Below are positions 6,050 to 16,178 of a stretch of 32,000 nucleotides of DNA, one piece after another (the stretch's first letter is position 1; every line of letters begins with the position of its first letter). The notes beneath the pieces were generated by a model. That model worked only from the letters and a program-made list of their open reading frames with translations. It was not told where the DNA came from and did not search any database. A program made the translations under genes and the position numbers. The stretch comes from Geobacter sulfurreducens PCA (GTDB lineage: Bacteria; Desulfobacterota; Desulfuromonadia; Geobacterales; Geobacteraceae), in assembly GCF_000007985.2 (NCBI RefSeq), contig NC_002939.5, forward strand, positions 1,020,001-1,052,000, given 5' to 3'.

Positions 6050-6175
6050 TCAACTAATCAACTCCGTACCCTTAGACGTCTCGGTGATTGTTTTATGCGT
6101 TATCTTATAGTTCCAGCCGAACACTTCGGTGGAAGCGACCAACAACAGCGTGGCCAGAATTAGTCTGAATATCAT
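6050..6175 (-). CDS. Possible 41-aa small hydrophobic-N-terminus protein (not in the supplied ORF track)
   Basis: My own translation gives MIFRLILATLLLVASTEVFGWNYKITHKTITETSKGTELIS. The ATG is 6 nt after the stop of the upstream lipoprotein gene, with a GAGGAG about 9 nt upstream. The evidence is coding potential only. Confidence 0.3.
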   Translation of the reverse strand: MIFRLILATLLLVASTEVFGWNYKITHKTITETSKGTELIS

Positions 6176-6181
6176 AACCAG

Positions 6182-6772
6182 TTACTCCTCTGGCAGTAAC
6201 ATATTGGCTGGCATGCCCATTTCTCTCATTTCGATGTTGCTTTCTCGGATTAGATTTCTCATTTTTCCCCTGTGCTCAACGGCGCAGCTCGGAAATGAGA
6301 CATGCCTTTTTCGCCTTTCCTTCATGCTCAATCTCTTCAACCTGAAGGTGGCCTTGTCGCCTTGCCAAATAACCTTATCCTTAGGCCAAACATTCTTGAG
6401 GCCGCTCCACGGATTGGGCGTAATCTGCTCATATCCCGCCTTGAAGATGATCACATCCATCTCTTCGATCATGGTGAGCACCAGCAGCCCCAGTCCCGGT
6501 ATGCTGAACTCGCCGTTCCCGTCGGTCAGGACCTCGCGGCTGTCGTAATAGGTGTGGCTCGCCCCGCCGGCGCCGGGATGCGCCTTGCTCCATTCGCCGA
6601 ATACTACTGCACCTTCGATCGGTTGGCCGGTTTTGGCATCGATTACCTTACCCTCGTACGGCCCGTCGATCCGCACGTAGTTGACGCAGCCGGTGCTGAC
6701 GAGGAATGCGGCGATGAGGATGAAGCAGTTGGTAACGCGTCGGGTTTGTTTCAGAAGTTGAGCAGCTTCCAT
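6182..6772 (-). CDS. Putative lipoprotein with a carboxypeptidase-regulatory-like (Ig-like beta-sandwich) segment
   Basis: I chose the internal ATG at 6772 (MEAAQLLKQTRRVTNCFILIAAFLVSTGC...) because it has an AAGGAG SD 8 nt upstream and a lipobox-like STGC. The segment YEGKVIDAKTGQPIEGAVVFGEW resembles CarboxypepD_reg domains. Confidence 0.6.
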   Translation of the reverse strand: MEAAQLLKQTRRVTNCFILIAAFLVSTGCVNYVRIDGPYEGKVIDAKTGQPIEGAVVFGEWSKAHPGAGGASHTYYDSREVLTDGNGEFSIPGLGLLVLTMIEEMDVIIFKAGYEQITPNPWSGLKNVWPKDKVIWQGDKATFRLKRLSMKERRKRHVSFPSCAVEHRGKMRNLIRESNIEMREMGMPANMLLPEE

Positions 6773-7023
6773 ATTCCATTCTCCTTGATGAAGTAGACTG
6801 GGTATCCGACCATCTTCTGTTCTCCGAGAATCGTTTCTTCCCGGAAGATGTGGCACTCGGCCCGATCGTTCGCCACATAGACAAGTTCAATCGGGGGGAG
6901 GTCTTCACTGAGCAGGGGGAGCCTGTCGCCGAGAGCGGTAACTGTATCCCGGTACGAATTACGGGGACACCACGAATTCTGTACGGATGGCCTACATGTC
7001 GTCCCACGAACATAAGGGCTCAA
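6751..7023 (-). pseudogene. Possible 5'-truncated gene remnant
   Basis: The frame is open for 90 codons. It has no ATG or SD until codon 70, and the track start is a TTG inside the repeat at 7013-7053. Only the C-terminal part (ELVYVANDRAECHIFREETILGEQKMVGYPVYFIKENGIWKLLNF) looks protein-like. Confidence 0.25.
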
Positions 7024-7094
7024 GGGACGTTGTTAATTTGTCGAATCCAGACGTAAGGGCTCAAGGGACGTTGTTAATTTGTCGAATCCAGACG
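7013..7094. repeat. Perfect 41-bp tandem duplication (TAAGGGCTCAAGGGACGTTGTTAATTTGTCGAATCCAGACG x2)
   Basis: Read directly: 7013-7053 is identical to 7054-7094. The second copy encodes the last codons and the stop of the Y1 transposase gene. Confidence 0.95.
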
Positions 7095-8054
7095 TGTATC
7101 GTGCTGAAATTCTGCTGTCGACTCGATTCGGGCAAGAACTTCCTCGCCGCGTCTTCTGGCTATTGCGACGCCTGATCTTGTCATACCCAACACTCTCCCA
7201 ACCTCTGCCCCGGTGTGGCCCTCTTCTACTGCGGTATAGCAAACGACCGCCCTCGCATCCAAAGTCCGCGGCAGACGAGACTTTGATGCTATGGCTTTCG
7301 GCGCGACTCCGTATTGGTCGGCAATGGTCGCAACAATCGATTCTATCGACATAGGACGTCGCAGTTGTTGGTGCAGGCATTCCTCGGTCTTCAGCTGTTC
7401 AACGAAATTTTCATCGCCAAGAATCCTTCTATCGCTGGCCGGACAGCCACCGCCGCTGGCTCCTGAACGCTTTCCGACAAGGTCCGGGCGCTCCCCCTGT
7501 AAAACACCATCGGCCATGAATTCGCGGTATGTGCGGCGTGATGCGGAGACTCCCGGCCCAAAATACCGCAGGACCTCGTTGATCCCCTGGCCCTCCAGAA
7601 CAATCTTCCCCATCAGCATTGCATGGCCGGACCACGGGAAGGTGTCCAGCGCGCCCAGATCGGCAACAATACCAGCACGCAAAGGATTCAGATGGATATA
7701 TCTCACCAGTTCCAGAAGGTACGAATCCTCATCGCACACGATCGACTTGTACCGATTCTGGAATAGATGCCCGGAGCGGTTGTGGCGCAGGTTGAACGAG
7801 ACGGCGTAGCCAGTAAGGAGCCTCCGCATGAAGGGGGCAAGCGGGGTCCGTGTTGGCCGGAGCAAAAGATGGAAATGGTTCGACATCAACGACCACGCCA
7901 GGCAGTCAACATCCATCTCCAGCAGAAGCTTCTGAAGCCGATTCCGGAAGTCCCACCGATCATCATCCGAGAGAAAGATGTCGCGGCGCTCTATGCCGCG
8001 AACGATCACGTGCTGCAAAAGATTAGGAATGTCAATTCGCGCTGATCGTGGCAT
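7074..8054 (-). CDS. Y1 (HUH) transposase of the IS200-like/REP-associated tyrosine transposase (RAYT) type, with a C-terminal HTH extension
   Basis: 326-aa ORF. It has an HUH motif (SNHFHLLL) and the catalytic-Tyr motif region RYIHLNPLRAG, typical of PF01797 transposases. The C-terminal roughly 90 aa resemble a DnaA-C-like HTH. Inverted repeats flank the gene. Confidence 0.8.
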   Translation of the reverse strand: MPRSARIDIPNLLQHVIVRGIERRDIFLSDDDRWDFRNRLQKLLLEMDVDCLAWSLMSNHFHLLLRPTRTPLAPFMRRLLTGYAVSFNLRHNRSGHLFQNRYKSIVCDEDSYLLELVRYIHLNPLRAGIVADLGALDTFPWSGHAMLMGKIVLEGQGINEVLRYFGPGVSASRRTYREFMADGVLQGERPDLVGKRSGASGGGCPASDRRILGDENFVEQLKTEECLHQQLRRPMSIESIVATIADQYGVAPKAIASKSRLPRTLDARAVVCYTAVEEGHTGAEVGRVLGMTRSGVAIARRRGEEVLARIESTAEFQHDTRLDSTN

Positions 8055-8088
8055 TGGTAATGAACTTTCAGATAGTTATATTGCTCTA

Positions 8089-8115
8089 TTCAACAAATCA
8101 ACAACGTCCCCTGAA
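8089..8115. repeat. Inverted partner (TTCAACAAATCAACAACGTCCCCTGAA) of the 7019-7045 and 7060-7086 cores
   Basis: By hand alignment, 23 of 27 positions are complementary to CTCAAGGGACGTTGTTAATTTGTCGAA. Together these repeats bracket the Y1 transposase gene. Confidence 0.7.
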
Positions 8116-8148
8116 TCTCCGGTCCACTATCCGTGTTGGGCATCGCTC

Positions 8149-8583
8149 CTACTCATGTGCTGATTCCCACCACTTTCTAACGAAGCGCCCACTCCGCCCG
8201 AAGAAGAGGATGGAGATATTTGATTTTTGGAGCTTTAATTCGATTTTTGTGAAAAACCAAACTGTCTGGTCTGAATAGGTTTCAACGTCAGATTTGCTAA
8301 CTACGACCTCGGGGGAACCAAAAGGCGACGTGCCGAGTCCTAAATATTCGGGAGAAGAATGTAGCTGAAGCATGTTATTGAAGCGAAGTGGCAACCGTCC
8401 GCCAATAAACATCGCTGATGTGAATCTTCTTCTTTTCTTCCATTCAATCTCTTTTCCGGGATACGCTTCCACTAACTGTCGCCAGCTCCCCAGCATCCCG
8501 CGAGAGATCAGTTTTGATAGCGGAATTGCTATCATGATCGCGACCACAAGAAATCCAGCAGCTAAAAGGATTGGGTTTTCCAT
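8149..8583 (-). CDS. Hypothetical membrane-anchored protein (144 aa)
   Basis: The ORF has an N-terminal TM helix (ILLAAGFLVVAIMIAIPL). I recognise no family. It lies between two attC-like repeats. Confidence 0.5.
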   Translation of the reverse strand: MENPILLAAGFLVVAIMIAIPLSKLISRGMLGSWRQLVEAYPGKEIEWKKRRRFTSAMFIGGRLPLRFNNMLQLHSSPEYLGLGTSPFGSPEVVVSKSDVETYSDQTVWFFTKIELKLQKSNISILFFGRSGRFVRKWWESAHE

Positions 8584-8599
8584 TTCTTATCTTTTCTTT

Positions 8600-8652
8600 G
8601 CTCAACGGGCGGGAGATCACCGGGCAGCTTTTAGGCCCGGTGCATCTTCCTG
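8600..8652. repeat. attC-like site C, left part, interrupted by the group II intron
   Basis: The layout is GCTCAAC, 11 nt, stem CACCGGGC, loop, stem GCCCGGTG, then CATCTTCCT-G. The remaining TTGGAC lies at 10562-10567, directly after the intron. The architecture is the same as sites A and B. Confidence 0.5.
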
Positions 8653-10561
8653 GTGTACGCCCGGCATGGGCGTGAACTAATGGGGTGCAAGTCCCCTGTA
8701 CGTAGAATCCAGCACTGTCGCGAGACAGGGTACCAAAGTACTAGCCGACGGCAAGGGCGCCTCCGCGAGGAGGGGTCTGAAGGAAGCCCGAGCGCAAAGC
8801 TATGAGCCGACGAACAGAAACAGCATACAAGGCCGGGGTGTCCGGGCAAGTCAGCACAACATGACGAAGTCCCACGGATTCAGGATGCCAAGGTAAATGC
8901 TGCGGTTGTGTAGCCACAGTTCACGTTCTTATCCGGGGAGACCTGCTCCACATGCTAGCGATGTTTGCTGGCGCGGCCTCTGGTAACAGCTGCCGTGATG
9001 GGGCAGGAGTCAGCAGAAGCCATAGTAGGCGCGGACGTTGCCGCCAGCGATCCGGCACCTGGAAACAAGCCCGGCGTCGTCACAGACAGCCGGGAAGCCT
9101 TACCCCGCCGAAGGGCCGAACGATGAAGAGGAGGTAAGCCCCAATGAGCTTTCACGACATACCGAACCCGACCGGGGGAATGCCCGTGGAGCGCGTCATT
9201 GACCGGCCAACTCCGGAAGAGCACCTACTGGAGCGGATACTTGCCACAGAGAACATGGACCTGGCGTGGAAACGGGTGCGGGCCAACAAGGGCGCACCTG
9301 GCGTCGATGGTGTTACCATCGACGCGTTCCCCGAACGGTTCCGGCCCCTCTGGGGCGATATCCGTGCATCGCTTGCAACAGGTACCTACCAACCACAGCC
9401 GGTCCTTCGAGTGGAAATACCCAAACCAACGGGCGGCACCCGCCCGCTGGGGATTCCCACCGTCCTTGACCGGCTGATCCAACAGGCAACAGCCCAGGTG
9501 CTCACGCCGATCTTCGATCCGGAATTCTCCGCATCGAGTTTCGGGTTCCGCCCCGGCCGCTCGGCACACAATGCCGTGCGGCAGCTGCGGGAGTATCTGC
9601 GGCAGGGCTACCGCATTGCCGTGGACATCGACCTTGCCAAGTTCTTCGACACGGTCAATCACGACCTCCTCATGACAATGGTGGGGAGGAGGGTCCGCGA
9701 CAAGCGGGTTCTCACCCTGATCGGCAGGTATCTCAGAGCCGGGGTGGAGGTTGACGGGCGGCTGGAAAAGACCCGCATGGGCGTACCCCAAGGGGGTCCG
9801 CTTTCCCCGCTTCTCGCCAACATCCTCCTCGACCACCTGGACAAGGAGCTTGAGAGCCGTGGCCACAAGTTCGTCCGTTACGCCGATGATTTCGTCATTC
9901 TGGTGAAGAGCGAGCGTGCCGGCGAGCGGGTCATGGGGAGCGTCAGGAAGTATCTGACGAACAAACTCAAGCTCACGGTCAACGAAGACAAGAGCAAAGT
10001 CGCCAGAAGCGGCGACTTGAGCTTTCTTGGCTTTGTCTTCAAGGGAACCAAAATCCTCTGGTCTGACCAGGCGTACAAGGAGTTCCGGCGCCGGGTCAGG
10101 AAGTACACCGGCAGGAGTTGGTTCGTCTCCATGGAGTACCGACTGAACAAGCTGTCGACCTACCTCCGCGGCTGGATGGGGTACTTCGGCATTGCCGAAG
10201 CCTACCGTGACATCCCGGAGATCGACGGCTGGATACGGCGGCGGGTGCGGCTGTGCTACTGGAAGCAGTGGCGGTGGTGCCGCACCAAGATTCGGAACCT
10301 GCTCAAACTGGGTGTACAGCTTGGCACATCCATCAGAGCAGGGCTGAACCGCAACGGTCCGTGGGCCATGTCCCGCAGGCTTGCCGCCCAGCACGGTATG
10401 ACCAACCAGTGGCTGAAGGATCAAGGACTTGTATCTGTCAAAGAACTGTGGGTGAAGATCCATTACCCGGCCACGGCCCGGTAACTTCGTCGAACCGCCC
10501 GGTGCGGACCCGCATGCCGGGTGGTGTGGGGGCTGGGGGGGTAAAACCCCCGGCTACCCGA
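8653..10561 (+). mobile_element. Group II intron (about 1.9 kb, ORF in domain IV, no endonuclease domain); ends are approximate to within a few nt
   Basis: - 5' end: GTGTACGCCCGGCATGGGCGTG resembles the GUGYG-plus-stem start of bacterial group II introns.
- Domain V: a 34-nt hairpin with a 2-nt bulge at about 10492-10525.
- Domain VI: a hairpin at about 10528-10559 with a bulged A at 10556.
- An RT/maturase ORF lies inside. Confidence 0.8.
9144..10484 (+). CDS. Group II intron reverse transcriptase/maturase (intron-encoded protein)
   Basis: 446-aa ORF with RT blocks including YADDFVILV. The X/maturase region is SWFVSMEYRLNKLSTYLRGWMGYFGIAEAY. There is no C-terminal HNH domain. Confidence 0.92.
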   Translation: MSFHDIPNPTGGMPVERVIDRPTPEEHLLERILATENMDLAWKRVRANKGAPGVDGVTIDAFPERFRPLWGDIRASLATGTYQPQPVLRVEIPKPTGGTRPLGIPTVLDRLIQQATAQVLTPIFDPEFSASSFGFRPGRSAHNAVRQLREYLRQGYRIAVDIDLAKFFDTVNHDLLMTMVGRRVRDKRVLTLIGRYLRAGVEVDGRLEKTRMGVPQGGPLSPLLANILLDHLDKELESRGHKFVRYADDFVILVKSERAGERVMGSVRKYLTNKLKLTVNEDKSKVARSGDLSFLGFVFKGTKILWSDQAYKEFRRRVRKYTGRSWFVSMEYRLNKLSTYLRGWMGYFGIAEAYRDIPEIDGWIRRRVRLCYWKQWRWCRTKIRNLLKLGVQLGTSIRAGLNRNGPWAMSRRLAAQHGMTNQWLKDQGLVSVKELWVKIHYPATAR

Positions 10562-10588
10562 TTGGACGTGTTCTTCTCTCTTCTTATG

Positions 10589-10939
10589 TTAGATTAAGAT
10601 CACAAGCCAGCCAAGGACCAGCACCAGTGGCGGCAATAGCACATCAGGAACCAATGATCTCCAATATGCCTTTTTAGAATCAAAGTCTTTACTTCTCCTG
10701 AATAGCAGCGAAAGCACAACGGCAACTGTCCAGAGAACTGCGAAGCATTTCACACTGAGACCGGCATATCCGTTCCAGTAAGTAAATTTCTCGGGGTCTC
10801 CAATTCCGGATTTATCAAGTGCCCTATCAGATTGCCAGCCGGAGACTAGGAATACAGCAACAAAGAAAAATTCTCCGGCTGAAAGAATGATTTGAATTAG
10901 GTTTGATTTTTTCATTCGTTTGTTGTCGTCCAACGTCAT
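10589..10939 (-). CDS. Hypothetical small integral membrane protein (116 aa, or about 108 aa from the second Met)
   Basis: The ORF has 3-4 hydrophobic segments and no recognisable SD. The annotated ATG lies 2 nt upstream of the terminal 7-mer of attC-like site A and codons 2-4 overlap that 7-mer, so the true start may be the downstream Met. Confidence 0.45.
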   Translation of the reverse strand: MTLDDNKRMKKSNLIQIILSAGEFFFVAVFLVSGWQSDRALDKSGIGDPEKFTYWNGYAGLSVKCFAVLWTVAVVLSLLFRRSKDFDSKKAYWRSLVPDVLLPPLVLVLGWLVILI

Positions 10940-10996
10940 AAGGCTGACCAGCCAGCCCAGTTTCTCCGGGCGAGCTGGTCGTGCTGCAAGTTGGAC
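10928..10996. repeat. attC-like site A
   Basis: The layout is GTCCAAC, 11 nt, stem GACCAGC, 21-nt loop, stem GCTGGTC, 9 nt, then GTTGGAC. The terminal 7-mers are perfectly complementary and fit RYYYAAC/GTTRRRY. The site begins 6 nt after the stop of the 221-aa ORF. Confidence 0.55.
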
Positions 10997-11002
10997 TCTC
11001 TC

Positions 11003-11668
11003 TTAATTCGACTCAGCTAACTCGCTTTTCTCCAGTTGATTTGCGGGCTGGCTTGACATCTCCTCCCAAAGCCCTTCTTGTTTTAATATTAATTTGAACT
11101 TTCGGTAAGTTATAGCCTTTCTTATGGGCTCACCAACTCCGTACATACACAATAAATATAATGACATTATTGCAATATATCCAAAAAACTGTTTTAAATT
11201 ATGTGGTGTTATCGCTATAAAAACCGCAATAAATACAATACTTATAAATAACGCCACTACACTTGACCATATTACTTCCAATTTGTTGAATATAGAAAAT
11301 TTGCACATAGCCTTTTCGTTATCACTTACTTCAAAAAATGTATAAACTTGTTTCAGATCTTTAATAGTAAACATGCCAATATCATAAAGCCTCATAATAA
11401 ATTTTGATTTAATTGGTGTGGTGTTGATATTTGTTGCAATCTTAAAAGCTTCCAGCAACTTCAGTTTAGTCATGAATTTATGTTCCTGAGTATTTTCGTC
11501 ACAACATTCAATGAGTGCTGAATATCTGGCAAGTTTTTTGGTTACATGGAATTTTTCGAAGTATTCGTTGGTTTTTTTGAGGAGTTGAAGTATTGCTGTG
11601 ATTGCGGCGACAACAACGGCAATATAGTAACCTACCGTATCATTTTTCAATAGCTCGATATATTCCAT
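11003..11668 (-). CDS. Hypothetical membrane protein (221 aa), strikingly AT-rich
   Basis: The ATG at 11668 gives MEYIELLKNDT.... The GTG start in the track lies inside the IS inverted repeat. The protein has three predicted TM helices, and I recognise no family. Confidence 0.6.
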   Translation of the reverse strand: MEYIELLKNDTVGYYIAVVVAAITAILQLLKKTNEYFEKFHVTKKLARYSALIECCDENTQEHKFMTKLKLLEAFKIATNINTTPIKSKFIMRLYDIGMFTIKDLKQVYTFFEVSDNEKAMCKFSIFNKLEVIWSSVVALFISIVFIAVFIAITPHNLKQFFGYIAIMSLYLLCMYGVGEPIRKAITYRKFKLILKQEGLWEEMSSQPANQLEKSELAESN

Positions 11669-12908
11669 CACTGCTGTCCCATAGTTTCTAAAGCAGCACC
11701 AGTTGTGGCGAAGCCTCTACTTTCGGTGGTTTGAATAGGCTTTCAAGGTCTCGCCGCTCGAACAAATTCAGCTGTAATAACCGTAATATCTGCTGCATCG
11801 ACGATCCGATCTTTGACAGAAACGTCAAGTATGCCAGTACCAGATACACGCACAGGGCAATCCAGATCTGTGTGAGTACGGCATTCTCCGAGGTGCCGAG
11901 GAAGGTCTTGATCTTCAGGTTCTGTTTGATCCACTTGAAGAACAGTTCGATCTTCCAGCGCTCTTTGTAGAGATCCGCCACGATTGCTGCTTTCAGGTGA
12001 TGCGCATTGGTCACGAAGCGGTAATCGTTGCCGTCATCGGCGATGAACTGGACAAGCCGCAGTTTGTCCTTCATCCCTTTGAGCCGAATCTCCTGGTCAA
12101 GAATGACGCCCGTTGCTTTCCTGCCGGGACGCTTCTTGAAGTATTCCACCAAGGCGTTCTCTTTCAGCCGGGTTACGAAGAAGATGCCGTTGGTCGTTAG
12201 TTGCTGCCACCAGTCGTAATCGGTGAAGCCCCGGTCAAAGACGGCCAGTGAACCGGCAGGCAGTTGTAGCATCCTGGCCCAGGACATCTCGTGCTTCTTG
12301 CCTTCGGTCACATCGATGAACTCAGGCAGATAGCCGTCAGCATCAAGACCGACATGCATCTTTATGGCACCCTTCTTCTGCCGGTAGGTGGCCCAAGGGA
12401 ACGCCTCCAGACAGAGATTGATGGTGGTGGCATCCAGCAGATAGACTTTTTCATCGATCTTGAAGCGATGACTGGGTGCAACTGCCTTGCATCGATGCAG
12501 CATTTTGTAAAAGAGCTCTTTGTACAACTCATGCGGCTGTTCATCGTTCACTCTGGCCAAGGTGGTACGGGAAACCGTCTTCATGCCCAGATGATAGAGC
12601 TTGTGGCCTTGGGCCTTGAGGTTTTCCACGATATCCCGCAGACTTTTTCTGCCGGAAAGTTGACAAACCATCATCGCCATGAACTGCGACCAACGGTTAA
12701 AAGAACGAAACTTCTGCCCGATGTGATGCTTGCGGGCAAGGGATTCAAATTCATGTCTCTTGAAAAAACCGACAACTTGGTTAAGGACTGTGTTACAATG
12801 TGCCACGGCTCTGATCTCCTTGTTAATATTGGTGTTTTGGCGAACTCAATATATCACAAGTAGCTCTCAGGGCCTCTCTTTATTCAGTTAAACTATGGGA
12901 CAGCAGTG
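11669..12908 (-). mobile_element. IS4-family insertion sequence (1240 bp)
   Basis: The terminal IRs are a perfect 19 bp (CACTGCTGTCCCATAGTTT at 11669-11687; its reverse complement at 12890-12908). A 9-bp direct target duplication ATATTCCAT lies at 11660-11668 and 12909-12917. Confidence 0.9.
11688..12806 (-). CDS. IS4-family DDE transposase
   Basis: The 372-aa ORF fills the IS. The N-terminal region (MAHCNTVLNQVVGFFKRHEFESLARKHHIGQKFRSFNRWSQF) is typical of DUF4372-type IS4 transposases. A DDE_Tnp_1-like C-terminal part follows. Confidence 0.9.
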   Translation of the reverse strand: MAHCNTVLNQVVGFFKRHEFESLARKHHIGQKFRSFNRWSQFMAMMVCQLSGRKSLRDIVENLKAQGHKLYHLGMKTVSRTTLARVNDEQPHELYKELFYKMLHRCKAVAPSHRFKIDEKVYLLDATTINLCLEAFPWATYRQKKGAIKMHVGLDADGYLPEFIDVTEGKKHEMSWARMLQLPAGSLAVFDRGFTDYDWWQQLTTNGIFFVTRLKENALVEYFKKRPGRKATGVILDQEIRLKGMKDKLRLVQFIADDGNDYRFVTNAHHLKAAIVADLYKERWKIELFFKWIKQNLKIKTFLGTSENAVLTQIWIALCVYLVLAYLTFLSKIGSSMQQILRLLQLNLFERRDLESLFKPPKVEASPQLVLL

Positions 12909-13156
12909 ATATTCCATGAATAATCTCCCCTCTTGTTGGTCCAATACTGGATGGTTACAGGCTTCGCGGAGTTTATGTCTTAAATTCGCCTTTTTCCAGT
13001 CTTCCTTTTTACTCCACCCGCCAACTTCTCAGATACCGAACATGAAACCAGCAAACTCCTCTTCGTTTTCGCCGCCCGCGCCGCCACACTCCTGCAACTC
13101 AGGGTGACTCCGCCAGCAAGACCGACATACTCCTCGGTTTGCTTTGCCTTTTCGTC

Positions 13157-13214
13157 GTACAACGCCACAAGCCTGACCGGCGGGTTTCTAGGCCGGTCGT
13201 GGCGCTAGTTGGGC
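13157..13214. repeat. attC-like site B
   Basis: The layout is GTACAAC, GCCAC-AAGCCT, stem GACCGGC, 10-nt loop, stem GCCGGTC, GTGGC-GCTA, then GTTGGGC. It has inner and outer pairings with asymmetric bulges. It lies 3' of the 262-aa ORF, 70 nt after its stop. Confidence 0.5.
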
Positions 13215-13284
13215 ATCGCTTTTGTTAATAAGTTAAATAAGTTACCAGCGTCTCGCAGTCTCCGTCATTATTCTTTCAACTTAT

Positions 13285-14073
13285 TCATGATAGCTGCATC
13301 GCAGAATTTGCTTTGATAGTGGCTGTGATGTCTGGGCGTCCCGGAGTGACGACCTCGTTGAAGATTTCTTGGATGAAAGAAGCGACCCAGTATTGGGAAT
13401 CCTCTTCAGGTTGCATGCTGCAATCAAGCGCATCTATATAATCGCTGGACATCATGTAGTGGTCATTCAAGAAAAAGATGTAGCCCAGATGAAGAACGAA
13501 GATATCTCGCACATCTTCAGCAAATCTATCAAGCCACCAGCCACGATTCTCGATGTAAATCTCGTTGTCGTTGAGCATTACGTTTCGGTAGAAGTTGTAA
13601 TGTGTATGGTCATTGCATCTGGCGCGCAAGCGCTTGTATCTGTCATCGACGTAAAGCAGGTCGTTGATCGGCTTAAGCGCTTCTGAGGTTCTAACATATT
13701 GGGACATCACCCGGAACTCTGGGAGGCTCTCCTTTCCCTGGAGCCAGTTGTGTATTTTCTCGACGACAAAGTTCTCGATGCTGAAGTTGTTCCGCAGGTA
13801 CAGGTTGGAATAGACGTTGATTACCGCAGAATCGTAATACTTCCGAAGCAGCGCGTATGCGTCATTGATGCGCCCCGCGAGAAGAATAGTCTTGATCGAT
13901 TCAACGGTACCCTGCATTGAGGAGTAGACGTAGGTGTCAATGTTGCAGATGGACTTTGTACCCATCGTTGTGAACAAAAACACAGACATGGCCAATTGCT
14001 CATAGAACTCCGCGTATCGCTCAAGTTCGATAAATACTCGATGCTCCGTATATGCCTTGTCTGTTACCTGCAC
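13285..14073 (-). CDS. Hypothetical 262-aa soluble, mostly helical protein
   Basis: GTG start with a GAGGAG SD 7 nt upstream, and no TM segments. It contains RLRARCNDHTH, which fits the loose HEPN Rx4-6H pattern. The family assignment is unverified. Confidence 0.65.
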   Translation of the reverse strand: MQVTDKAYTEHRVFIELERYAEFYEQLAMSVFLFTTMGTKSICNIDTYVYSSMQGTVESIKTILLAGRINDAYALLRKYYDSAVINVYSNLYLRNNFSIENFVVEKIHNWLQGKESLPEFRVMSQYVRTSEALKPINDLLYVDDRYKRLRARCNDHTHYNFYRNVMLNDNEIYIENRGWWLDRFAEDVRDIFVLHLGYIFFLNDHYMMSSDYIDALDCSMQPEEDSQYWVASFIQEIFNEVVTPGRPDITATIKANSAMQLS

Positions 14074-14606
14074 GGCTATGCTCCTCTATGTATCAAGGCC
14101 CAACTCTTATAAGGCCCCAGTCAGTCAATAGGCAAAATGGTGCCCAACCGATTTTGAGTCGTTTTCTTTGACGAATCTATCTCGACATCTTATCCGTTCT
14201 GACTTGATTTCCAATACTGGGTCAGGAAAGAATCCTGCACCAAACTCTTATCAAAGCTCAATTCGCTGCGGTTGTTGCTGCTACAGCGATTGCGAAGGCA
14301 TTCCTTGCGCGGCTTAGAAACTATCCCGTTCCCTCGGCCGTCCCATTCATGAAGCGTGCTCATCGCTGGTGCGAGGCACAGTTGATCCCGGTTTCCGGCG
14401 AGGGGCAGAACATTCAAAAGCTGAAAAGAATAGATTCAGTTATGTAAGGAGCGGGACAGGGCTCCAATCTCGTTAACTTGCTCCCTGAGCATCATCAAAT
14501 CGACCGGTACGTGTTCTCAGCCGCACCTCGTTGTCTTTCACGGTCGTGGTCATGCTTGCTCGTGTGGCTCCAGTTGTGCACTAAGCTGCCTCTGTCCCCT
14601 CCAGCT

Positions 14607-15653
14607 TTACGCCGTTGCCAAAAACTTTTCCCGGTCGAACGGCACATTGTTTTTCAGCATGTAGAAAATCGCTCGTGCCAGTTTGTGGGCAAGGATCGAA
14701 ATCGCTTTCCCTTTGCCATGAATCTTGACCAGTTTCTCCATCAGGATTTTTGCCTGGGGATTGTGGCGCACGAAGAACACAGCGGCCTCAGAGAAGGCCC
14801 ATTTCAAATGGACGTTGCCTATCTTGGAACCGCCGACCCCCTTTTTCTTTCCCGCTGATTCGTGGGCACATTTCACCAGCCTGCAGTAGGAAGAGAAGTC
14901 TTGCACGGTCGGGAAACGATTTATGTCATGGATCTCGTAGAGCATTACCAGGCCCAGCACCTTTCCCACGCCGTTGATTGAGCGCAGAAGTTTGAGGGCA
15001 TGCAGGTTGTGTTGCCGGGCCGTTTTTTCTATGTCCGGTTCGAGGACATTGATGACATCGTCAAAGGCGTCGATCATGGCAACGTCAATTTCGATAATTT
15101 TCCTCACTTCCGGATCGTGGAAGAGCTGAGCTACTTCATGGCGGTTCTCTTCGACTCCGAGATCAATGCCAAGAGGAGCCAGATTATATTGGGTTACCGT
15201 GTTCTGGATGTGTGCCATAAGCTCAGCACGTTTTCTGACGAAAAAGTTCCGGCGGCGCAGGAGGTCCCGTGTTGCCCGCATTTCCGGCGGGTAGACGTAG
15301 GCTAAGGGAAACATGCCGCCGCGGAGCAGCACAGCAATCTTGTGGGCGTCAATCTTGTCGCTCTTTGCTTTGCCACCGTGGACTGCCTTCATGTAAAGGG
15401 CGTGACCGAGCACAAACTCGATCTTTTCATTACGGCAAAGGTCTGCCAGCCAATACCATGCGAACATGCATTCCACGCCGACAACCAAGTCCTCCCGGTA
15501 GGGTGCCACGAGGCGAAGGAAGCTCTCAGGATTGCAGTTGATTTCGCGATGAACCAGCACGGTCCCTTCCGAGTCGAGAATGCAGACGTACTTTTTTCGG
15601 GCATGAAGATCAATTCCGCAGTAGTACTTGTGAGTCTTAGTGTAAAATCTCAT
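14607..15653 (-). CDS. IS110-family (DEDD) transposase
   Basis: 348 aa from the ATG at 15653 (MRFYTKTHKYYCGIDLHARKKYVCILD...) with an AAGGAGG SD. It has an N-terminal RuvC-like DEDD region and a C-terminal Transposase_20-like region (GVGKVLGLVMLYEIHDINRF). Confidence 0.9.
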   Translation of the reverse strand: MRFYTKTHKYYCGIDLHARKKYVCILDSEGTVLVHREINCNPESFLRLVAPYREDLVVGVECMFAWYWLADLCRNEKIEFVLGHALYMKAVHGGKAKSDKIDAHKIAVLLRGGMFPLAYVYPPEMRATRDLLRRRNFFVRKRAELMAHIQNTVTQYNLAPLGIDLGVEENRHEVAQLFHDPEVRKIIEIDVAMIDAFDDVINVLEPDIEKTARQHNLHALKLLRSINGVGKVLGLVMLYEIHDINRFPTVQDFSSYCRLVKCAHESAGKKKGVGGSKIGNVHLKWAFSEAAVFFVRHNPQAKILMEKLVKIHGKGKAISILAHKLARAIFYMLKNNVPFDREKFLATA

Positions 15654-15732
15654 GTGTAAGGCCTCCTTTGGAGAATGGGTTTCGCCAAAGTCCAGCATAC
15701 GCTAATCCGTATGCCCAGAGGGGGCCTTACAC
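15654..15732 (-). promoter_or_regulatory. Structured leader of the IS110 transposase
   Basis: On the minus-strand RNA, GTGTAAGGCCCCCT (about 15731-15718) pairs 13 of 14 with AGGAGGCCTTACAC (15667-15654), which contains the SD. This long-range stem sequesters the SD. It encloses two inner hairpins: GCATACG-N6-CGTATGC and CTTTGG-N13-CCAAAG. Confidence 0.5.
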
Positions 15733-16178
15733 AGTATCCCATTATTGAGCAGTTAGTGTGATGCATATCCAATGGCCCCTGGGGGGCGGGCCAAGCTAAC
15801 AACCTGGAACTACATAATAATAGCCCTCAAAGAACGTATTTTCAGGCCTTAGGGCCTCATTTTCGTCGGCCAAATTGGCATTGTAAGGCTCCGCCTTCTC
15901 GAATCAATCCCCCTCACACATCACTAACACCCTTTCATAGATCAATTACCATCCCCGTTCAATCAGGAAAACCCCTATACTCCGCGGTTGTGAGCCTCGT
16001 TTCAGGAGATTATGTAACCAGAGCCGTTTCGATGACCTTGATGGATGCAGGCTGCGTAAGGAGCGCGGTCTCCACGGGGTCAAAACTAGATGTTTTCGCA
16101 AAAATGCAAAAATAACTGGATTTTTTTTTGGTGTTTACATACTATCCTCCGTGACTCCGCACAGATGGAAGAGGCCCC

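Follow-up and report, generated by a model that had tools for sequence, protein, structure and literature searches.

A probable integron cassette array without a nearby integrase gene, reshaped by mobile elements, in the chromosome of Geobacter sulfurreducens PCA

We analysed a 32,000-nucleotide stretch of the Geobacter sulfurreducens PCA chromosome (RefSeq assembly GCF_000007985.2, contig NC_002939.5, positions 1,020,001 to 1,052,000 of the forward strand), hereafter called the window; coordinates are window positions unless another locus is named. Between about 4000 and 16500 the G+C fraction is 0.38-0.56, vs 0.60-0.72 in the flanks, a difference already noticed in a sequence-only reading of this DNA. 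Within this island, 8119-14101 very probably represents an integron cassette array on the chromosome of a G. sulfurreducens-type genome. It has no integrase gene close by, which would make it a CALIN (cluster of attC sites lacking integron integrases). The array would comprise four promoterless minus-strand cassettes with open reading frames (ORFs) of 262, 221, 116 and 144 amino acids (aa), ending in attC B, A, C and a truncated fourth site, respectively. It would later have been invaded by four mobile elements: a group IIC-attC intron, an IS4 element, an IS110-family element and a Y1-transposase element. The candidate cassettes and their sites are:

13163-14101, minus strand: cassette 1, the 262-aa orphan ORF (13285-14073) and attC B; its 5' end abuts the IS110 insertion
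10934-13162, minus strand: cassette 2, the 221-aa orphan membrane-like ORF (11003-11668) and attC A; IS4 lies at the start codon
8606-10933, minus strand: cassette 3, the 116-aa ORF (10589-10939, weak DUF805 match) and attC C containing the intron
8119-8605, minus strand: cassette 4, the 144-aa orphan ORF (8149-8583) and its truncated attC
13157-13214, minus strand: attC B, site of the 262-aa cassette; top strand GCCCAAC...GTTGTAC
10928-10996, minus strand: attC A, site of the 221-aa cassette; top strand GTCCAAC...GTTGGAC
8600-8654, minus strand: main part of attC C (last 2 nt of R'', then L'', loop, L' and R'), site of the 116-aa cassette, split by the intron
10563-10567, minus strand: remainder of attC C, the first 5 nt of R'' (GTCCA/AC), on the far side of the intron
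8119-8141, minus strand: truncated attC of the 144-aa cassette (R'' GCCCAAC, spacer and L'' arm); the Y1 element cuts it after GACCGGA

The four ORFs gave no significant match in Pfam, NCBIfam or PADLOC scans made to assign functions to their products, in agreement with the first description of them as mostly orphan. Sites A, B and C lie directly 3' of minus-strand ORFs (measured gap 7-70 nt), as had been seen from the letters alone, and on re-reading the sequences and positions of A and B agree exactly with the earlier account. The third element also proved real, but the intron borders first given for it were 2 nt off. We set them as listed above because of homology to an intron in a class 1 integron and because an intron-free copy of the site occurs in two related loci (L015 and L021; the loci compared carry L numbers). 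The rejoined site reads GCTCAAC-N11-CACCGGGC-loop-GCCCGGTG-N10-GTTGGAC. The terminal 7-mers had been said to fit the attC R''/R' consensus, and they do: the ends of the family are G-Y-Y-Y-A-A-C ... G-T-T-R-R-R-Y, with AAC and GTT >97% conserved and a length of 51-96 nt across 150 members, inside the 50-150 nt range of attC sites. The gene caller's ATG of the 116-aa ORF (10937-10939) falls within attC A, in the conserved CTTATGAC-GTT motif of that site; translation might instead begin at another in-frame ATG, which lies further downstream and clear of attC A.

The hairpin formed by the bottom strand of an attC site, here the plus strand of the window, has two paired boxes, R and L, with an unpaired spacer between them; bulged bases interrupt L, a variable loop closes the hairpin, and the extrahelical bases on one arm mark the bottom strand as the recombinogenic one. 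In a structural alignment of 23 sites (A, B and rejoined C of the window with sites from L008, L011 and L013), a spacer of 5-6 nt separates the R box from a 4-bp helix; a 1-nt bulge on the R''/L'' arm divides this helix from a second one, beyond which lies a variable loop. The L box is a covarying 4+3 bp helix interrupted by this bulge. Paired cells make up 81% of the alignment, vs 30-37% when the partner columns are slid, and the covariation score is 0.415 (reached by 0 of 500 shuffles) vs 0.18 for shuffles; compensatory changes occur in 6 of the 7 L-helix pairs. With 150 sites the alignment is 82.9% paired with a covariation of 0.405 vs 0.139, figures that come from a model-fitted alignment and hence lean towards the structure. 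It had been a worry that the spacers of 9-11 nt are longer than in classical attC sites. This worry falls away because these ‘spacers’ hold the covarying 4-bp helix plus bulge, that is, the L box, as in classical attC. A bottom-strand fold had been proposed as a further check: in the folds of C and of the attC of the 144-aa cassette the extrahelical bases are indeed present, on the 3' arm as in the aadA1 attC, but the identity of the base is not conserved.

The integron integrase cuts the attC hairpin between the bases reading G and TT of the top-strand GTTRRRY (written G/TT below), and cassettes leave as excised circles and then re-insert. The last six bases of each R' therefore belong to the following cassette. 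The 144-aa protein is encoded identically in many contigs, and a 492-bp block around its gene (8118-8609) is 99.8-100% identical across five different arrays, where it is the sole DNA shared with the window. The arrays compared were those of the window and L015, CP072789 (L008), L011 and L012, and L013. At the 5' junction of the cassette (minus strand), four unrelated attC palindromes all join at ...CC-G/TTGAGC-AAAGAAAAG..., and in the window this upstream boundary, G/TTGAGC, falls within attC C. At the other end, the intact 64-nt attC is found in L008 (10443-10506), L011, L012 and L013, identical to the window as far as the truncation. It reads GCCCAAC-ACGGATAGTG-GACCGGACGCG-ATAAAACC-CGCGCCGGTC-ACCACCGAGCC-G/TT and is followed by GAAC, GGGA or ATAC according to the next cassette. 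The stretch at 8119-8141, first listed as a partial copy, is thus the true R''/L'' half of this attC.

The 262-aa cassette provides a second case. In L019, L022, L024 and L025 its homology to the window ends at 13160, inside GTTG/TAC of B, and the next cassette there is a reversed PIN/MazE (vapBC-like) toxin-antitoxin pair; the window has the 221-aa cassette instead. Crossover at G/TT is thus seen for the 144-aa cassette in five contexts and for the 262-aa cassette in two, and breakpoints of this kind, read from alignments, are the signature of integron cassettes. For element A the crossover point is deduced from family membership only, because the 221- and 116-aa cassettes are seen only together and in one order.

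The window flanks match G. sulfurreducens AM-1 (CP010430) and several contigs from metagenome-assembled genomes (MAGs) and Logan at 98.5-100% identity, and the flanking genes are also common to CP072789 and KN400 (CP002031). The GGDEF and histidine-kinase flanks are 99-100% identical, but what they enclose is not: CP072789 has about 14 other small ORFs there, all in one orientation and with a RYYYAAC...GTTRRRY palindrome behind each, and KN400 has a third cassette set, five others. Cassette-like variability of the syntenic region, which the sequence-only reading had suggested looking for, is therefore found in both strains. As judged from these comparisons, cassettes at this locus are shown to have been exchanged between near-identical strains exactly at G/TT.

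We then scanned one genome per species for the 21-nt motif common to A and B (GCYGGTCAGSCTTRTGRCGTT). It was found at 89 loci vs roughly 4 estimated by chance, almost all of them in Geobacteraceae or Desulfuromonadales. Multi-megabase chromosomes or contigs with a match had one copy each, and whole genomes had 1-3. These loci contain 134-153 model sites, up to seven per 8 kb and, with one exception, on the same strand within a locus. Searches by tblastn with IntI1 revealed full-length or locus-cut homologues in L102, L051, L068, L043, L103 and L117 and fragments in three more loci. The full-length homologues are each divergent from the attC strand, as in classical integrons, and three of the proteins (L051, L043 and L068) score 343-356 bits on the TIGR02249 ‘integron integrase’ model, whose cutoff is 265. 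Sites with arms nearly identical to those of A and B sit beside IntI in L051, L043, L068, L102 and L103, and the IntI-linked loci include Geomonas, Geotalea and Geobacter.

Three covariance models were used. The third was trained only on 27 attC sites of the six IntI loci, without window sequence, and gave 52.1 bits for B (E 5e-11), 40.1 for C and 39.3 for A (E ~1e-7); the intact C of L015 scored 49.4. Nothing else in the 32 kb was significant by this model, the next best match having 13.5 bits (E 0.31). In the three models in turn, A scored 36.5, 42.1 and 39.3 bits and B 50.9, 60.4 and 52.1 bits, and the intact attC of the 144-aa cassette scores 43 bits. By these models A, B and C are far beyond chance.

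The mobile elements of the array, with a promoter in the intron, are:

8655-10562, plus strand: group IIC-attC intron with a reverse transcriptase (RT)/maturase ORF (9144-10484), in the bottom strand of attC C at GT/TGGAC
8822-8849, minus strand: putative P1out promoter (TTGCCC-16 nt-TATGCT, intron positions 168-195), pointing into the 144-aa cassette
11669-12909, minus strand: IS4-family insertion sequence (IS) with a transposase gene (11688-12806) and 16-bp inverted repeats CACTGCTGTCCCATAG
14102 to ~15741, minus strand: IS110-family element with a transposase gene (14607-15653; NF033542, 216 bits) and a 75-aa ORF (14190-14417)
7012-8118, minus strand: Y1 element (IS200/RAYT-like) with a transposase gene (7074-8054) whose product has a DnaA_C helix-turn-helix domain; it truncates the last attC

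The intron bears directly on the identity of its host site. It matches Rfam group II domains D1-D4; its protein has only RVT_1 and GIIM among Pfam domains, scores 418 bits on TIGR04416 and is 55% identical to intron proteins in class 1 integron attC sites. The junctions are GAATTGT/GTACGCCCAGCATGGG...CCCGAT/TAGAC for the intron of a Pseudomonas putida class 1 integron and CCTGGT/GTACGCCCGGCATGGG...CCCGAT/TGGAC in the window. Thus ...CCTGGT/TGGAC is the same position as GAATTGT/TAGAC in the aadA1 attC: the same GT/TRRRY point, complementary to R'', in the same orientation opposite to the cassettes. The intron-free attC C is present in L015, L014 and L021. Group IIC-attC introns insert at R'' in the attC bottom strand, opposite to cassette transcription, and are known in CALINs too; G.s.I1 of G. 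sulfurreducens PCA is listed in a cassette array (PMC7923331, PMC3001079). By sequence comparison, the window intron has the features of this group, namely a ribozyme and an RT/maturase without an endonuclease domain, inserted in an attC bottom strand opposite to the cassettes.

The P1out pattern has one match vs 0.01 expected, and its hexamers, spacing and position in the intron equal those of the G.s.I1 entry in Table 3 of PMC3001079. The window intron is thus, by these sequence features, probably G.s.I1 itself or a close relative, and its P1out probably drives transcription of the 144-aa cassette. It resembles G.s.I1 and S.ma.I2 in its class C-type RT/maturase and its bottom-strand GT/TRRRY insertion opposite to the cassettes. 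Two differences stand out: the intron-binding site IBS1 is TGGT, whereas the IIC-attC consensus is TTGT, and the 5'-exon neighbour at the reported G.s.I1 site in PCA is vapC, whereas the host attC in the window (C, after the 116-aa cassette) is apparently another. Together, the G/TT breakpoints, the R/L covariation with its bulge, the IntI-linked subfamily and the intron position uphold the first proposal of a CALIN-type integron cassette array.

Empty sites or ends were mapped for the other elements too. The IS4 element lies at the start codon of the 221-aa gene, flanked by a 9-bp target duplication, ATATTCCAT, at 11660-11668 and 12910-12918, and the empty site is present in L015, L021 and L023. 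The IS110-family element was inserted at AATAAT/GGG upstream of cassette 1. Its ends were set from six independent insertion contexts, one inside an asparagine synthase gene and others including unrelated intergenic DNA. Because the six contexts share a target of ~AATAAY/G, the element is not attC-specific, and we rejected its assignment to the attC-targeting IS1111-attC type. The six contexts also account for 14098-14148, once counted among the partial copies: as the right end of the IS110 element, it was rejected as an attC or attI-like site, and GCCCAAC at 14098-14104 consists of 4 nt of target and 3 nt of IS. A 221-bp ‘cassette-like’ duplication in CP072789 (L008 2463-2683 = window 14102-14322) was rejected as a cassette as well. 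It is a partial duplication of the IS110 end: the last 221 bp are repeated in tandem, with a 4-nt AACT microhomology at the join.

The Y1 gene is at the distal array end in every strain examined, with both flanks varying between strains. Its inverted terminal repeats are at 8090-8107 vs 7027-7044 and 7068-7085, of which the last two lie in a tandem duplication of 42 bp; a solo third repeat of this type is at 6050-6067. KN400 has nested partial duplications of the Y1 left end (L136 2830-2960). The element also explains another supposed partial copy, at 7001-7020. Its word CATAAGGGCT (7011-7020) is, from 7012 on, the Y1 terminus and not attC sequence, because KN400 retains the terminus ...GAGCCCTTAT beside an unrelated flank. 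Joining 7001-7020 with 8119-8141 as one attC split by the Y1 element was likewise rejected: ATAAGGGCT is the Y1 terminus, found in KN400 too, and the second half of the 144-aa cassette's attC, where that site is intact, is different. The last of the partial copies, at 15881-15890, has no model match and no comparative support; a weak promoter-like match overlapping it does not exceed chance.

Several observations concern the array borders in related strains. The arrays of KN400 and CP072789 begin after a ~250-bp segment with four TCCTATATAGGA-like repeats (L136 185-450; L031 390-520 and 3850-3915; L008 ~2680-2720). The last bases of this segment are ...CCTATTAATAAC-GGG-TTATACC; just past GTTATACC the two strains part, each with its own first cassette. 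This segment could be an attI-like site without an adjacent intI; the IS110 insertion lies 3 nt before its G/TT. On the same side, a 107-bp segment (15900-16006) is kept beside a different cassette array in CP014963 (L030) at 90% identity, 15900 is a common breakpoint in L030, L031 and L136, and a 153-bp segment unique to the window (15747-15899) replaces KN400-type sequence. At the distal side, the 196-aa gene at 6182-6772, with the Y1 element on one side and the GGDEF gene on the other, has no attC after it in the window. In its place KN400 has a truncated cassette, an attC and a 157-aa cassette, and homology resumes at 6084, by the solo Y1-type repeat. Defence-type cassettes occur in other arrays that hold the 144-aa cassette (L008 10517-13883; L013 474-3481). 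They encode an OLD-family AAA_15+TOPRIM nuclease, HNH, Imm26, a HindIII-type restriction enzyme with an N6/N4 methylase, and a GIY-YIG protein; the OLD-family nuclease cassette is interrupted by the same IS4 element as in the window.

A complete integron has intI, an adjacent attI and a Pc promoter upstream of the first cassette, and the window does not contain this set. No tyrosine-recombinase (Phage_integrase/IntI) domain was found among the window ORFs, and the space between the array and the histidine kinase gene, when searched for an intI remnant, contained none. These scans agree with the first impression that intI and attI are missing from the window, and the array is classed as a CALIN because no integrase was found at the locus.

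Five observations weigh against the integron interpretation. First, tblastn with IntI1 and three Geobacterales IntI proteins found no intI or remnant in the window or in the loci of related strains, and no recognisable attI was seen in the window or in the G. sulfurreducens-type loci compared. Second, textbook sites have a conserved G as the bulged bottom-strand base, whereas here this base is C, T or G. Third, class 1 attC sites are only weakly recognised by the Geobacterales models, with 19 bits (E 0.01-0.03) and, for aacA4, ~10 bits (E 2-4). Fourth, no other contexts were found for the 221- and 116-aa cassettes, which always occur together and in the same order. Fifth, the difference between AM-1 and the window, considered as a cassette exchange, was rejected as such: it results from a deletion associated with IS21, which starts inside the 196-aa gene and reaches window 13033. 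Since intI is missing from the window, the enzyme that moved the cassettes would be an IntI acting in trans or in an earlier host. That it was an IntI is suggested by analogy with relatives, in which the same attC subfamily sits beside IntI. In a published survey, intI genes are listed for G. metallireducens and G. lovleyi, and G. sulfurreducens goes unmentioned.

One might also suppose that the Y1 HUH transposase takes part in array turnover, through hairpin-directed deletions or even cassette capture, in a genome without any integron integrase. This idea arises because the cassettes differ almost completely between flanks that are 99-100% identical, with no intI at the locus and Y1 fixed at the distal end; we consider it very improbable.

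Among explanations that dispense with an integron, the least weak, itself very unlikely, is a generic variable or defence island in which the hairpins are terminators and strains differ by homologous recombination and IS activity alone. It is true that the hairpins come after stop codons and that IS activity accounts for much of the visible rearrangement (the IS21 deletion in AM-1, deletions beside Y1, the IS110 and IS4 insertions); other arrays here hold OLD-type nuclease, HNH, Imm26 and HindIII-type restriction-modification genes. However, no T tracts accompany the hairpins, they were not called as terminators, and invariant AAC...GTT ends are not expected of terminators. Terminators would neither put every homology breakpoint at G/TT in unrelated arrays nor co-occur with integron integrases.

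Somewhat less credible still is the alternative raised at the outset, that the palindromes are dispersed repeats of the repetitive extragenic palindrome (REP) or bacterial interspersed mosaic element (BIME) type, mobilised or maintained by the adjacent Y1 transposase of the REP-associated tyrosine transposase (RAYT) kind, and are no integron sites. The Y1 transposase in the island matches the RAYT model, weakly (56 bits, cutoff 80), and has its own short REP-like repeat family, ACGNNGTTRATTNGTYGA, with four copies at 6050-8107 flanking the gene vs 0.01 expected. IS110-family elements and class C introns also target REP or terminator hairpins, which speaks for this view. However, the repeats that go with Y1 (ACGTTGTTGATTTGTTGA type) form a sequence family distinct from A, B and C. 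In a small sample, namely the ~23 kb of the window outside the island and ~40 kb of other G. sulfurreducens-type regions, there were zero matches of the A/B/C type, so dispersed copies were not seen in the ~60-70 kb of sampled DNA outside arrays. The subfamily motif occurs 1-3 times per genome, not tens to hundreds of times, and the copies are 51-96 nt long with RYYYAAC/GTTRRRY ends and stand in co-oriented arrays after ORFs, beside IntI in relatives.

That the Y1 HUH enzyme of the locus, using single-stranded hairpins as substrates, moved the units in place of an integron integrase would fit the constant Y1 gene at the distal end with both flanks variable in every strain seen and the lack of intI at the locus, but is hardly believable, as the G/TT crossover, the R/L box architecture and the same attC subfamily beside IntI in relatives point to IntI, and the variation at the Y1 flanks resembles truncations inside ORFs or attC loops rather than precise cassette exchange.

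We therefore return to the integron cassette array and its place among known systems. As in a CALIN or sedentary chromosomal integron, its cassettes are promoterless, mostly orphan and all in one orientation, and an attC with RYYYAAC/GTTRRRY ends follows each; its attC sites are related to one another, its content is strain-variable and no intI lies within 32 kb. Unlike them, it is colonised by four mobile elements, its last attC is truncated and its proximal end has no recognisable attI. Class 1 attC sites (aadA1, aacA4) share with A, B and C the R box, the unpaired spacer, the L box with a bulge on the R''/L'' arm, the variable loop, the crossover at G/TT and the length range. They differ in their low sequence similarity to the window family (cross-detection 10-19 bits), in a 3' spacer of 5 nt vs ~9 nt in the window family, and in the identity of the bulged base, which is not conserved here. 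With REP/BIME-RAYT systems the locus has in common imperfect intergenic palindromes and a Y1 transposase nearby. Unlike REPs, the A/B/C copies are longer, arrayed after cassette ORFs instead of dispersed, and IntI-linked in relatives, and the Y1 gene here has its own unrelated repeats.

The array is an instance of an element kind already known, not a new kind. Such arrays, and the occurrence of this intron lineage in those of G. sulfurreducens, entered the literature in 2009-2010; Leon and Roy (2009) probably describe the G. sulfurreducens array. Its value for integron biology is thus modest and lies in a documented Geobacterales attC family with 150 aligned sites, covariation and IntI linkage. 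The chromosomal cassette array could be recognised by a reader from the raw sequence alone, and it offers a well-resolved view of array decay and reshaping by four mobile elements, each with a mapped empty site or ends. Its interest rests on unusually clear comparative evidence together with turnover without an integrase at the locus. Such extensive cassette turnover between near-identical strains bears on whether CALINs are dead remnants or are serviced in trans.

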